A DNA stretch of 20,000 nucleotides, taken from NCBI GenBank assembly GCA_003614675.1, contig ML002233.1:45939-65938 (forward strand), in the 5' to 3' direction. Below, piece after piece: positions 343 through 13,473 of the stretch. The notes below the pieces were generated by a model. The model saw only the letters and a list, made by a program, of their open reading frames with translations, was not told where the DNA came from and made no database searches. Each line of letters starts with the position of its first letter. Position 1 is the first letter of the stretch. Both the position numbers and the translations under genes were made by a program. Origin of the DNA: Dimargaris cristalligena. Lineage: Eukaryota.

Positions 343-1363
343 GGAAACATAGGTAATAAAATGGCGTTTAACCCGTAGACCCTAAATTAATAACCAGCTA
401 TCCCGCTATACGGTTGGATGAACCCATTCTCGGATAAATGGTGGCTTTAGTTTAGAAACGGGTGTTACGAAAGTCCACAGTGAGATACAAATTCCATGGA
501 GTAAACTGTAATGCTTGACTACCTCAGTTATTCGATTTACACTGTAGCCCTTCATTCTGGCCACTTCAATATATACGAATGCCAATAGTATTAACTAAGA
601 CTGACTGCCTACCAGAGAAGACTGTCGGTCTCTAATAGCGTTCTTTCCTTTTACATTAATATGCTAATAAACATCTTTGCCATTCAAAACAAATACAAAA
701 AGCAGTAAAAACGAGTAGACAAATATTATTCTTTTGAATTAATTAGCCAGAGTTGGCAGCACTTGTTCCCATTCATTAAGGACCAAAAAAGAAACGACGG
801 CTGGGTGGGCCCCATGGGTAGGGGATGTTGGCCGTTTTCTAAATTGCCTGTCTATTTTTAATGTCCGGCGAGAGAGGGAAGGGGATAAACCACTATACCC
901 CGGCCTCCTCTTCCTTCTGTTGGTAGCAAAACCAATATCCATACAGCCCCGTTTTATTCCAATTGAACCGATAAAGAGGGGCCCAGACTCCATAATATAC
1001 AATGATTAGTCTGTAGGAATCGGTCTCCCTTGTGCATATCGTTAATGGAAAAGAATTGTAAGCCCATCGGCGACCCAAACCGCGCGTGTCACTACTATAG
1101 GCGGGGTGCACGGGTACTACGGGACCGACGTGGCTACCTAACTTGCAAGTAGTTGTTATGGTGCATAAGAATAGAGCCCAGCTAGTATATTGGTTGCGCA
1201 GTCGTGTGGTTTGGCAAATCCCTCCATTTTTTAATAGTTTCTCAGAAGAAGACGCCCTAAAGGGCCCCATGCAAAGGGAGCCCCTGTTTTCCAAATAGGT
1301 TGGCAACAATTAGGGATATCCCCCCCCTTCCTCTCCTCCCTTAAAGCCCGCCGAATGGCGACG

Positions 1364-1371
1364 TATAAATA
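1364..1371 (+). promoter_or_regulatory. Candidate TATA box (TATAAATA) for the 1597-3363 gene/pseudogene
   Basis: Consensus TATAWAW about 230 nt upstream of ATG 1597, followed by pyrimidine-rich, 5'UTR-like sequence. Confidence 0.4.
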
Positions 1372-1596
1372 ACCTTGGTGCCGCATAGCCATTTTACTTT
1401 AAACATTTCGATACCCTACCCACTCTCTTTAGCTGTTTAATCTTTAGCCTTGACCCTATTTCTCCTTCGTGACTTTTACTATCACGATCGGACGACCTTT
1501 TATTTATATTTTTGGTAGCCTACTTGCTATTATTCTTTTGACCTAAAGTGTGCTAAGCCCTCCCCGCCACCTCTTCCCGACCACCATTCGACCAAC

Positions 1597-4705: not shown

Positions 4706-6619
4706 CTAGCCACTAAAGAGGCGGACGATATTGAAAGTAAGGCAAATGGACATGACCAAGCAACCGTATACGACCAGGGCCATGGATAGAAATTTGAGGA
4801 CGGTCATGGGGGCGCGTTGGTGGATCTTGTAGAAGAATAGGCCGGGCAAAATAAAGGATATCGTGGTAGAGCCCGTTGAACCGACAAATGAGAGCACCAG
4901 GTCCAGCTGGGATACCGACATCGCCACCAGATACGAGAAAAACAGAATACAGATGGTCACGGCGATGAACATGCGGCGCGACATGGCAGGGGGTACAATG
5001 TTACCGGTAGAGGCTAACGACAAGGGTCGGGACCGACCGGAGTGGCCTCCCCCTCCCACCCGCAGTCCATCTTCGTCGTCGTCCTGCAGGGCTGCATAGC
5101 CACTCTGTTGCGCCTGGAGGTATTCGGTGGGAGCGGTCTCCATCTGGCGCCTTTGGGCCACGTATAGGCTGCCGTTGGGTAATAGAGTAGAGCCGGCATC
5201 AATAGACACATCCCCCCCGCCTAGAATCGGATGCCGACCGTCTAGTATCGGTGAATTGGGATCACTGAGACTTTTGGGGCGTTGGAAACGGGGTAGCACG
5301 TAGCCACAAATAATCTTGTCCAGGCAGGCCCGGCAAGGGTGGCATTGTAGAGGGTAGGAGAGCAGCATGAGTACCCCAATAGCCACTTGGCCCAACGTAA
5401 CCAAGGGCCCGCTGTGGTACATGAGGATGATATTGGGCAATACGTCGTCGCCGAATTGGAGGTAGCCGAGAATGGCCACGATAAGGTAAGCCACGGTGGC
5501 TACGCTAATGGCCAAATGGATGGTACCTTTAATGTTACGGGGGGAGTTGTCCCGTAATTCGTTATACACACTAAAAATGTTCTGGTGGCAGGTGAATGCA
5601 AACACGAAAATGGGGAGGTTGGTGAAGAATTGCGGCGATAGTTTGATGAGGGAGACTCGGCCGGCGGGGACAGGGGTGCGGGCGGGGTCTAAGAAATTGA
5701 CCAGCACAATGACCACCAAGTACAACAAGGCTACTAGTGCTACCATGGAGGTATAACGCAGCGAGTCTAGCCTACGCAAAAAGGCGAGGGGCGTGAGTAA
5801 CAGAATGGCCAAGGTAATCCAGAAGCGACGGTCCGTCAGCAAAAGAAACAGGAACGAGGGGTCGGTTTTGGCGTACGTGACCACATTGAGAGGCTCGGGG
5901 ATGAATAGGGCACTCATGACCTGGGGCATCACTTCACCGAAGATAATGAGGTACGAGATGGACACCCCAAAGCACTTGATAGCGATGGCCAGGTCGAAGA
6001 AGAGCGAGGCACCCGGGTAGGTCAACTGGCTCACGGTAAAGAAGGAGGCATGTCGTCCTTCCACAAAGCGAGCGCAGTAGCCCAGGAAGAAGAGGCCCAG
6101 GGCCGAAGCAGCGGCGGAAAAGAGAATAATCCAGCTCCCGAGTAGCAAGCCTACCGAGGCCATGGCAGTAGGCATGGCCAGGATACCCGACCCTAAAATG
6201 GTGTTACATAAATTGACCACGCATGAAAAAACGGTAGCAGTGGGCTCCTGGCCGTCGACGGAGGGGCCGCTGGGTGAGCGCGGGGGGGACAGGGAGTCGG
6301 CCTCGTCGTAGTCGACGGACTCGGCCGATGAGCGGTGCAAATGGGGGGCCATTGGCCGGGAGGGAATCCCTATACCCTCCTCGGGGGGGTCGCCGCCACC
6401 AGTTGAGCCACCGCTCCCGGTATCGATGCGTCGCAGGGTAGTGTGTGAGTGGGAGTTCTTGAGGCGGGCCGAGGTACTAGATGCTACCGAGGTCACCGAA
6501 TGATTGGATTTGGTCCGGGTTACGCGGGGGGCCGACTCTACGGGCCGCGCGGGGGCATTTCCATCGGGTACTTGGTTTCGCAGGGGTGGCCCGGCCGTGG
6601 AAGGGGCCCTTGTTGACAT
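4706..6619 (-). CDS. AVT6: Vacuolar amino-acid transporter, AVT5/6/7 subfamily (Aa_trans/AAAP family), 637 aa, intronless CDS
   Basis: Family motifs NLCNTILGSGILAMP, FDLAIAIKCFGVSISYLII, IFVFAFTCHQN, SYPLQCHPCR and VGSTGSTTISFILPGLFF, with about 11 hydrophobic segments. It has a disordered Ser/Pro-rich N-terminus and a long late hydrophilic loop. The symbol is subfamily-level; orthology among AVT5/6/7 is not resolved. Confidence 0.93.
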   Translation of the reverse strand: MSTRAPSTAGPPLRNQVPDGNAPARPVESAPRVTRTKSNHSVTSVASSTSARLKNSHSHTTLRRIDTGSGGSTGGGDPPEEGIGIPSRPMAPHLHRSSAESVDYDEADSLSPPRSPSGPSVDGQEPTATVFSCVVNLCNTILGSGILAMPTAMASVGLLLGSWIILFSAAASALGLFFLGYCARFVEGRHASFFTVSQLTYPGASLFFDLAIAIKCFGVSISYLIIFGEVMPQVMSALFIPEPLNVVTYAKTDPSFLFLLLTDRRFWITLAILLLTPLAFLRRLDSLRYTSMVALVALLYLVVIVLVNFLDPARTPVPAGRVSLIKLSPQFFTNLPIFVFAFTCHQNIFSVYNELRDNSPRNIKGTIHLAISVATVAYLIVAILGYLQFGDDVLPNIILMYHSGPLVTLGQVAIGVLMLLSYPLQCHPCRACLDKIICGYVLPRFQRPKSLSDPNSPILDGRHPILGGGDVSIDAGSTLLPNGSLYVAQRRQMETAPTEYLQAQQSGYAALQDDDEDGLRVGGGGHSGRSRPLSLASTGNIVPPAMSRRMFIAVTICILFFSYLVAMSVSQLDLVLSFVGSTGSTTISFILPGLFFYKIHQRAPMTVLKFLSMALVVYGCLVMSICLTFNIVRLFSG

Positions 6620-11507: not shown

Positions 11508-12203
11508 CCATAGGGCTGGATGGGAAAAAGGGTCGTCATGGTGGGGTAGTAGGGCGCATGATCGGATTAGACGATTAAAACGCCCTTCATTGGTGTGCAG
11601 CCCTTAAAGGCACTACTATAGCCATCGGCATGAAAGGCGGAACTTTAATCAATGACCCCCCAGTAAAAAAAGACATTTTCCTGTAGATTAAAGTGGGTGG
11701 GGGACGAAACGAGACAAGATCAGTATTAGAAAGAGGAGGGGCCCAACTCGGCTTAATTAGACCGTTTCAAGGAACTCGCGTTTCACATGACGGCGGTGTG
11801 CCGAATGAATGAATGAATGAAACGAAAGGAAAGGGAAAGGGCAATATATACACATACATATATCTATATTGCACGGGATAAATCAAGAGGGAATGCTGGG
11901 TAATTAATTTTCCCCGCCTCTCTGCGGCCATGTTGGCGGGGCAAATGGACTCATTAGCGTGGCCTAAATGGTTGGCTGGCTCGTACGGCCTAGTGGTAAT
12001 AGACCAGAAGAAGATCGCGCGTTCTTTCCTCCCACCCAGGGCAGGGCAGGGGCCGCCGCTGTTTTTTTGGCCGGCTGACCAACCGCCCCTCAAACCCTCT
12101 GTAGTGCCTTTTCCCGCTGCCAAATCACCCTATCACTGCCACTCCTCCATTTCCGGTACTATGCACCCTATACTCCCGTGCTACCTATTCCTAGCGAGCC
12201 CTT

Positions 12204-12224
12204 TTCCGGGATATATAATCCCCG
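12204..12224 (+). promoter_or_regulatory. Metallothionein TATA box (TATATAA, 12212-12218) inside the proximal copy of the TTCCGGG-N7-ATCCCCG element
   Basis: TTCCGGGATATATAATCCCCG lies about 150 nt upstream of ATG 12365 and is followed by a strongly CT-rich leader (12290-12360). Confidence 0.65.
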
Positions 12225-12364
12225 GCCCTTCCCTTCCCAAATCACCTCGAACTCACTCATAGATACTCACGACTGCCCGCATTTGCCTGAACTTCCTTCT
12301 CCTCCTCCCCCTTCCTTACCTTACCCCACCCCCCCTCTTCTCTCCCCTCCCTCTCGTTCTCAAA

Positions 12365-12544
12365 ATGGCCAACCACCCCACTGCTTGCTCCTGCGGCGGC
12401 TCCTGCCAGGGCTGCTCCTGCGCCAGCGGCTGCTCGTGCTCCCGCGTCAACAACCAGTCCCAGGCCTGTCCCTGCGGTGAGACCTGCGGTTGCGGTTCCG
12501 CCTGCAGCTGTGGTAGCGACTGCTCGTGCAAGAGCTGCAAATAA
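12365..12544 (+). CDS. Metallothionein (probable Cu-thionein), 59 aa, 16 Cys: MANHPTACSCGGSCQGCSCASGCSCSRVNNQSQACPCGETCGCGSACSCGSDCSCKSCK
   Basis: Translated by hand; it is shorter than any ORF in the track. AAAATGG start context and TAA at 12542-12544. It has seven CxC motifs, no aromatic residues, is Gly/Ser-rich and has strongly C-ending codons. A TATA box and CT-rich leader lie upstream. Confidence 0.95.
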   Translation: MANHPTACSCGGSCQGCSCASGCSCSRVNNQSQACPCGETCGCGSACSCGSDCSCKSCK

Positions 12545-13473
12545 ATTATAAACCCCACCCATATCGCTGTCAGTCCGTCCGTTCGTTCGTCCATCCCTCC
12601 CTCCTTCACCGCCTTGCCAGTCTGATGACCAGAAGTCCTCTATGTTTCATCCATGGTGAATAATCATCCCCCTTCCACTTCCCCTTCTTCCACGTAAATC
12701 GTGGTCGACGATTCCATCCCGCTTGGACAAGTCATTGGGAGGGTGTGCTAGGCAGTGGCGTCGATTAAACATGTATATCTGATATTGCCGGGTCCGAGAT
12801 ACTCCCCCTTCTCTAACTTATAACCCACTTTTATCATACTACTACGATTTCTAAATACCCGGGGGTCTGTGGCCCTATTACATATATATGTATTACAATC
12901 CTGTCTATAGCCTTTACATATAGTATACATATATAAATTCATCTAGTTCCCGGCCTAATTCATCGTATGTGCATATGTAAAGGGAAGCAAGTCGTCTATA
13001 GCTAGTAAGTGATCTTGGAAGGATATAAGAGTACGTGTGCATGTGTGGGGCGGAAGAGGGTTAGGTTGAGTAGCAGCAGTTAATTGAGGTATTTCACCAG
13101 GTTTTTCATGACCGTCTGTACGAGCATCTTAGTCTGGTGCAGCACCTTACAATGTCCGAGTGCTCACCAGTACTTAGCCCGTTCATTATTTTGAGAGAAG
13201 AGGGCAGCAATTAAAACTAGTCCGGATAAATTGGTATGAGAAAACCGAGACCGTTAAGAACTTGTCGTAAAGGTACGTTAAATATTTATTCCGACGTTTC
13301 TAAAAATTAGGGATGGGAGAGAGACGGGGGAGAGAAACGGCGTAATCGCGTAGTCTTATACAGACCAACCCCCCCCCCCGGTATAGGGCAGGGTGGGTTG
13401 TCGAAAAGGCCAATTTGGCTGATACAGCCGGTACCTCCTTTCGCAAATAATACCCCACTCCTTGACCGTACCA

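Follow-up and report, generated by a model that had tools for sequence, protein, structure and literature searches.

The question raised by this locus is whether a short, cysteine-rich open reading frame in the genome of Dimargaris cristalligena, a fungus of the Kickxellomycota (Dimargaritales), is a gene, and what its product would do. The stretch analysed here, referred to as the window, comprises 20,000 nucleotides, and the frame lies at 12365-12544 on its forward strand, where the initial annotation had claimed a protein of 59 amino acids with 16 cysteines. Translation bears this out: the frame runs from ATG to TAA over 59 codons, and the predicted protein is MANHPTACSCGGSCQGCSCASGCSCSRVNNQSQACPCGETCGCGSACSCGSDCSCKSCK, followed by the stop. 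I consider it probable that this is a real, intronless and unannotated fungal gene encoding a cytosolic metallothionein with two metal-thiolate clusters, for which Cu(I) is the most likely metal. That the gene is transcribed, that its product binds metal, which metal it prefers and how many clusters it forms are inferred.

Metallothioneins are, following the Kagi/Fowler nomenclature, proteins of less than about 10 kDa that are rich in cysteines arranged as CxC, CxxC or CC, with few aromatic residues and few histidines. With 59 residues the predicted protein is of low molecular weight; 16 of these residues are cysteines, arranged in seven CxC pairs and two CxxC with not a single CC, and there is no Phe, Trp or Tyr and only one His. 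Cysteine makes up 27% of the protein, followed by serine (20%) and glycine (14%). The cysteines are located in two blocks, at residues 8, 10, 14, 17, 19, 23 and 25 in the N-terminal one, and at residues 35, 37, 41, 43, 47, 49, 53, 55 and 58 in the C-terminal one (Table 1). The latter is spaced as CxC-x3-CxC-x3-CxC-x3-CxC-x2-C, which amounts to four CxC pairs with a period of six residues and a terminal cysteine. The spacings of both blocks, the six-residue period and the cysteine-free linker are all correct in the initial annotation. An equally good description of the same protein is a series of seven CxC-x3 hexads, with a 'CQG' insertion once, the linker once, and a terminal cysteine. The N-terminus, M-A-N-H-P-T-A-C (12365-12388), is not hydrophobic, and the protein as a whole contains only two residues out of L, I, M, V and F, so that a signal peptide is not plausible; lacking a hydrophobic N-terminus, the protein should therefore be cytosolic.

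Table 1. Location of the features discussed in the text; positions refer to the window.
Feature	Position	Strand	Basis
Amino-acid transporter (Aa_trans), 637 aa, intronless	4706-6619	-	PF01490, E 8.7e-76; NCBI-annotated
TATA-like box, TATATAA in GATATATAATC; start codon 147 nt downstream	12212-12218	+	consensus match only
Core promoter plus presumed 5' leader, pyrimidine-rich and with no ATG	12219-12364	+	sequence read
Predicted CDS, metallothionein-like, 59 aa, 16 Cys	12365-12544 (including TAA stop)	+	single exon
N-terminal Cys block, residues 8-25, 7 Cys, CxC-x3-C-x2-CxC-x3-CxC	12386-12439	+	translation
Hydrophilic linker SRVNNQSQA without Cys, residues 26-34	12440-12466	+	translation
C-terminal Cys block, residues 35-58, 9 Cys	12467-12538	+	translation
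AATAAA hexamer over the stop codon, possible polyadenylation signal, in AAATAAATTATAAAC	12540-12545	+	consensus match only

A protein of this kind would be unfolded in its metal-free form. The thiolates of the two cysteine blocks would then bind soft metal ions, Cu(I) being the likeliest, and wrap around two separate clusters, one on the seven cysteines of the N-terminal block and the other on the nine cysteines of the C-terminal block, with the linker SRVNNQSQA keeping the two apart; in this way the metal may be buffered or detoxified. If the Cu5 bound per seven-cysteine unit in published fungal proteins is taken as a guide, the N-terminal block might hold about five Cu(I), and the C-terminal block somewhat more. 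From the single sequence, with no alignment as input, AlphaFold2 predicts no fold with confidence (mean pLDDT 50.1, pTM 0.24), which is expected of a metal-free thionein but does not discriminate between the explanations considered here.

Among the fungal metallothioneins that have been described, the short proteins of Neurospora and Agaricus (family 8) follow the pattern X2-CXC-X5-CXC-X3-CXC-X2-C-X3 in about 26 amino acids with seven cysteines (PMC4755600). Like the metallothioneins of Neurospora crassa and Agaricus bisporus, the predicted protein has all of its pairs as CxC, with spacers of glycine and serine and without aromatic residues; unlike the 26 amino acids and seven cysteines of family 8, it has 59 and 16, respectively. 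Written as a regular expression, the family 8 pattern does not match the protein, the closest stretch being CXC-X3-CXC-X3-CXC-X2-C at residues 41-58. The first spacer, X5 in family 8, is X3 in the C-terminal block and X6 with an extra cysteine in the N-terminal block, and this latter block also lacks the terminal cysteine of family 8. The initial annotation had likened the last seven cysteines to the Neurospora unit, and this holds only loosely. An alignment by eye to the sequence in Table 1 of PMC4755600 gives identity at 12 of 21 aligned positions, with one gap of two residues; the regular expression fails, with X3 rather than X5 as first spacer. With the same reference sequence, and again by eye, the N-terminal block has the hexapeptide SGCSCS and six out of seven cysteine positions in common.

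Larger metallothioneins composed of repeated Neurospora-like cysteine units with cysteine-free spacers are found in Cryptococcus neoformans (CnMT1 and CnMT2) and Tremella mesenterica (TmMT). These are Cu-thioneins that bind approximately Cu5 per seven-cysteine unit, and the modular genes in the Tremellales are often mis-annotated or missed (PMC4755600). The TmMT unit begins with CXC-X3-CXC, as does the C-terminal block of the predicted protein, but it has a second spacer of X4 with a proline doublet, both of which are missing here, and a regular expression of its full pattern, CXC-X3-CXC-X4-CXC-X2-C (CXCX3CSCPPGXCXCAXCP), fails on the protein. Furthermore, CnMT1, CnMT2 and TmMT are composed of 3, 5 and about 8 units (122, 183 and 257 aa), as opposed to two unequal blocks in 59 amino acids; TmMT has 10 exons as opposed to one; and all three proteins are from another phylum, the Basidiomycota. 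Whereas a modular Tremellales metallothionein has at least three seven-cysteine units, the protein from Dimargaris has two blocks, of seven and nine cysteines.

A similar size is seen in the two-domain metallothioneins of Agaricomycetes that arose by internal duplication, such as HcMT1 and HmMT1 (both 59 aa) and LbMT2a/b (58 aa; PMC12508003). The predicted protein belongs to the same size class (57-59 aa), and the origin proposed for it, internal tandem duplication of a short cysteine unit, is the same. However, the C-terminal heptaCys motif of these proteins, C-x4-C-x-C-x2,3-C-x-C-x4-C-x-C, is not found in it by regular expression, and the Agaricomycete genes carry small introns where the Dimargaris frame has none. 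The counts of 16 cysteines and seven CxC are those of Aspergillus nidulans CrdA, which has 16 cysteines and seven CxC clusters (PMC5447758); CrdA is 109 amino acids long with cysteines scattered along its full length, in contrast to the two blocks within 59 amino acids seen here. The primer used for the start of crdA in the same paper encodes, translated by hand, M-V-H-P-T-S-T-C, close to the M-A-N-H-P-T-A-C of the predicted protein, and an N-terminal motif in common with the family of CrdA and Candida albicans Crd2 is possible.

Tested as regular expressions, the motifs published for three fungal groups (Neurospora/Agaricus, TmMT unit, Agaricomycete heptaCys) thus all fail to fit the cysteine spacing, and in the open-access literature I found no fungal 7+9 layout with exactly this spacing, no metallothionein described for Dimargaris or the Zoopagomycota, and nothing specific to the Mucorales. 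The initial annotation had suggested that the 7+9 arrangement may be an undescribed architecture. As a claim of any weight this is not established, since modular designs built of seven-cysteine units with cysteine-free spacers (PMC4755600) and duplicated metallothioneins of 57-59 amino acids (PMC12508003) have been published. The design is not new; with its two blocks, the protein varies a modular plan that is already known.

The alignment to the Neurospora unit also bears on the metal. As part of the protein can be aligned to this unit, and as modular metallothioneins built of such units are Cu-thioneins, a Cu(I) thionein with two clusters is the favoured reading, and the 59-aa protein is a probable Cu-thionein. 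The main rival keeps the metallothionein and changes the metal: the nine-cysteine block could form an M(II)3-Cys9 cluster with Zn or Cd, alone or mixed, in the manner of the beta domain of animal metallothioneins, with a smaller cluster on the seven-cysteine block, or the protein could serve mainly as a thiol antioxidant. I hold this to be unlikely, although it is not without arguments. Nine cysteines are the number that forms the three-metal clusters of animal beta domains. A snail metallothionein takes up three Cd2+ ions per domain (PMC11500472), several of the two-domain Agaricomycete proteins protect yeast against Cd, Zn and Cu (Table 1 of PMC12508003), and deletion of CrdA, with the same counts of cysteines and CxC pairs, gave no metal-sensitivity phenotype in the tests reported, and its authors suggest an antioxidant role (PMC5447758). 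On the other hand, the combination of CxC throughout, glycine and serine spacers and alignability to the Neurospora unit is the signature of fungal Cu-thioneins in the literature considered (PMC4755600), and metal preference is not reliably predicted by any sequence rule.

All of this presupposes a functional gene. The frame could also be a chance or recent opening in a GC-rich stretch with 18-nt periodicity, with neither transcription nor translation, or it could be open only as the shadow of an antisense gene; I regard this as rather improbable. The 16-cysteine composition is far beyond chance. Cysteine accounts for 2.6% of the six-frame translation of the window, and among 259 stop-to-stop open reading frames of at least 40 amino acids in the six frames, the best other stretch of 59 amino acids has no more than 7 cysteines, compared with 16 in the frame. 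None of 20,000 mononucleotide shuffles of the frame's own bases yielded 16 cysteines, with a maximum of 9, and a purely compositional origin is therefore excluded. In a 25-aa sliding scan the frame remained the only metallothionein-like one in the window; the three others that were reported have five cysteines each.

The repetitive nature of the DNA is an argument for a frame without function, since part of the N-terminal block is a DNA tandem repeat: Tandem Repeats Finder calls an 18-nt period here (12393-12439, 2.8 copies, 81% matches), and in this block only. However, the nine-cysteine block is not called as a DNA repeat, and yet its protein sequence keeps a strict six-residue cysteine period. 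The serine within the CxC pairs is encoded by TCC, TCC and TCG in the N-terminal block, and by AGC or TCG, from both serine codon families, in the C-terminal block; such persistence of the cysteine and serine pattern while codons change is to be expected under selection on the protein. The glycine codons are split by half (12386-12538), as all four in the N-terminal half are GGC and all four in the C-terminal half are GGT. Each half would accordingly seem to derive from an 18-nt unit of its own, which speaks against a whole domain having been duplicated recently. Growth of the gene appears to have taken place within each half, through local copying of an 18-nt unit encoding CxC-x3.

The signals found all point to the forward strand. 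The 146 nt between the TATA-like box and the start codon are without ATG, with 78% pyrimidines overall and 86% in 12280-12364, and the start codon lies in the context CAAAATGGC, with A at -3 and G at +4. The leader of the annotated transporter is, on its coding strand, likewise pyrimidine-rich with A at -3. I scored the codon fit of all six frames against the synonymous usage of this transporter gene, and the cysteine frame came out best with +0.41 bits per codon; the other five frames scored -0.79, -0.50, -0.10, -0.07 and +0.24, the last of these containing two stops. Of the 59 codons, 42 end in C, and GC3 is 0.85 as compared to 0.69 in the transporter. Taken together, the TATA-like box, the ATG-free leader, the start context, the AATAAA hexamer and the codon fit look like those of a forward-strand gene. 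On intrinsic evidence of this kind, composition and motif make-up included, the metallothionein reading of the initial annotation is well supported.

The consensus HTHNNGCTGD represents Ace1-type sites, and TGCRCNC the animal-type MRE. No HTHNNGCTGD site is present in 11900-12364, the approximately 460 nt upstream of the frame (20 in the window vs. 14.9 expected), and one TGCRCNC heptamer is located upstream at 12162-12168 (13 in the window vs. 11.4 expected). The heptamer is no more frequent in the window than chance would have it, and I rejected both motifs as regulatory evidence; no site for a copper regulator was recognised upstream. A scan for sigma-70 promoters and terminators remained at chance, and is irrelevant to a eukaryote.

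Two open frames overlie the cysteine frame on the opposite strand, one of 101 amino acids rich in Ala and Gly (12257-12562), and one of 92 amino acids rich in Gln, Pro and Glu (12316-12594). That both are open is what a shadow of an antisense gene would require, but it is also to be expected, because no antisense stop can arise from codons such as TGC, GGC, TCC and GCC. Their codon fit is poor, with -0.50 bits per codon for the 101-aa frame, the second worst of six, and -0.07 for the 92-aa frame, against +0.41 for the cysteine frame, and neither product has a meaningful match in Pfam (best E-value 0.98). Moreover, the TATA-like box, the ATG-free leader and the start context serve the forward strand. 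Going by codon usage, the antisense frames look like shadows of the TGC, GGC, TCC and GCC codons.

What remains in favour of a non-functional frame is that no public gene model covers it and that the protein searches returned no homologue. The exact 59-aa sequence is absent from a collection of about 15 billion proteins in which the neighbouring transporter is present, and among 1.84 billion representatives a phmmer search turned up none that contains it; to judge from these collections, the gene has no public annotation. No family matched the protein at E-values up to 10 in either Pfam or NCBIfam, and it belongs to none of their metallothionein models above the curated cut-off, which carries little weight given the penalty that HMMER puts on such a composition. 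A word-indexed search of 5.8 billion clusters gave 17 candidates of near length, none at E <= 1; 53 longer candidates (105-2000 aa), none at E <= 10; and no candidate among shorter sequences, of 30-31 aa only. The sole phmmer match among the 1.84 billion representatives (E 1.8e-4) is false, being a repeat protein of 1787 amino acids without cysteine. The PDB contains several metallothioneins, but the three matches obtained there at E 0.5-1 are unrelated, two being alpha-galactosidase and one a capsid fusion. As the one match is free of cysteine and the PDB returned unrelated proteins only, the HMMER scoring would seem blind to this composition, and these blanks are weak evidence for an absence of relatives. 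The nearest neighbours in a protein language model are small unnamed cysteine-rich clusters, followed by metallothionein clusters (PF02068, 0.84; PF00131, 0.81; PF02067, 0.81); with scores below 0.9 this similarity is a lead only.

Genomic contigs were searched by pattern as well. Bacterial and archaeal genomes gave 600 pattern matches, none of which was confirmed, and metagenome contigs gave at least 597, of which one was confirmed, on a bacterial contig from soil (L001). It is a CxC peptide of 52 amino acids with 12 cysteines (6+6) around a cysteine-free linker (1281-1439, forward strand), preceded by a Shine-Dalgarno-like AAGGAG. An AraC/HTH_18 regulator is encoded directly upstream (506-1153, forward strand), and the exact peptide is, like the fungal one, absent from the collection of 15 billion proteins and unannotated. 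In BLASTP with compositional adjustment the two are 50% identical over 52 positions (31.2 bits), and they have a layout in common: a short N-terminus, a cysteine block, a cysteine-free linker of about 10 amino acids, and a second block with CGETCGCGS, which is in part a product of seeding the metagenome scan on CGETCGCG. The differences are that the one is bacterial, linked to a regulator and has 12 cysteines, and the other is fungal with 16. I treat the peptide as a parallel, since in low-complexity sequence convergence and kinship would be indistinguishable.

Small cysteine-rich proteins are common effectors of fungi, and Dimargaris is reported to be a mycoparasite; the frame could accordingly be read as a secreted, disulfide-rich effector or toxin-like mini-protein acting against the host mould, but this is highly improbable for a protein with only two L/I/M/V/F residues and no hydrophobic N-terminus, without a confident compact fold in AlphaFold2 (pLDDT 50.1), and with CxC pairs at every six residues, a poor geometry for disulfides that is typical of thiolate clusters.

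If expressed, the metallothionein favoured here would be a candidate from the Kickxellomycota/Zoopagomycota grade, and it is one more example of how genes this short and this biased in composition go unnoticed by gene callers and profile searches alike. A protein of two units could bridge the one-unit Neurospora type and the Tremellales proteins with 3 to 8 units, and bear on how modular Cu-thioneins arise. A more far-reaching interpretation would make the gene the founder of a metallothionein lineage in early-diverging (zygomycete-grade) fungi, with two unequal clusters doing different jobs and perhaps with an ancestry in common with the peptide on the soil contig; I consider this a long shot. 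It would possibly combine a Neurospora-like, seven-cysteine Cu(I) cluster with a nine-cysteine, beta-domain-like cluster for divalent metals, and in a haustorial mycoparasite it could aid survival of metal-based defence at the host interface, as do the Cryptococcus metallothioneins in macrophages. In practice the value is modest: the genome gains a gene model, and routine assays of metal binding gain a candidate.

By the present analysis, the remainder of the window is gene-poor. Ten stop-to-stop open reading frames of at least 100 amino acids, out of 15 listed, were scanned against Pfam, and the transporter is the only one with a match. It clusters with RKP39963.1 in the protein collection, and its sole cluster mate at 90% identity is a partial model of 391 amino acids, located on another contig, and would thus seem to stem from a second assembly or allele of the same organism. 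No direct or inverted repeats of 60 nt or longer were found in the window, and the presence of four open reading frames of exactly 103 amino acids is therefore coincidental. GC content is 39-47% in much of the window, vs. 53-55% around the transporter and the cysteine-rich gene. Microsatellites flank the latter on both sides, with about 4.8 copies of (GAAT) upstream at 11803-11821, and 9 copies of (GTCC) just past the stop codon, in the presumed 3' UTR, at 12569-12604.
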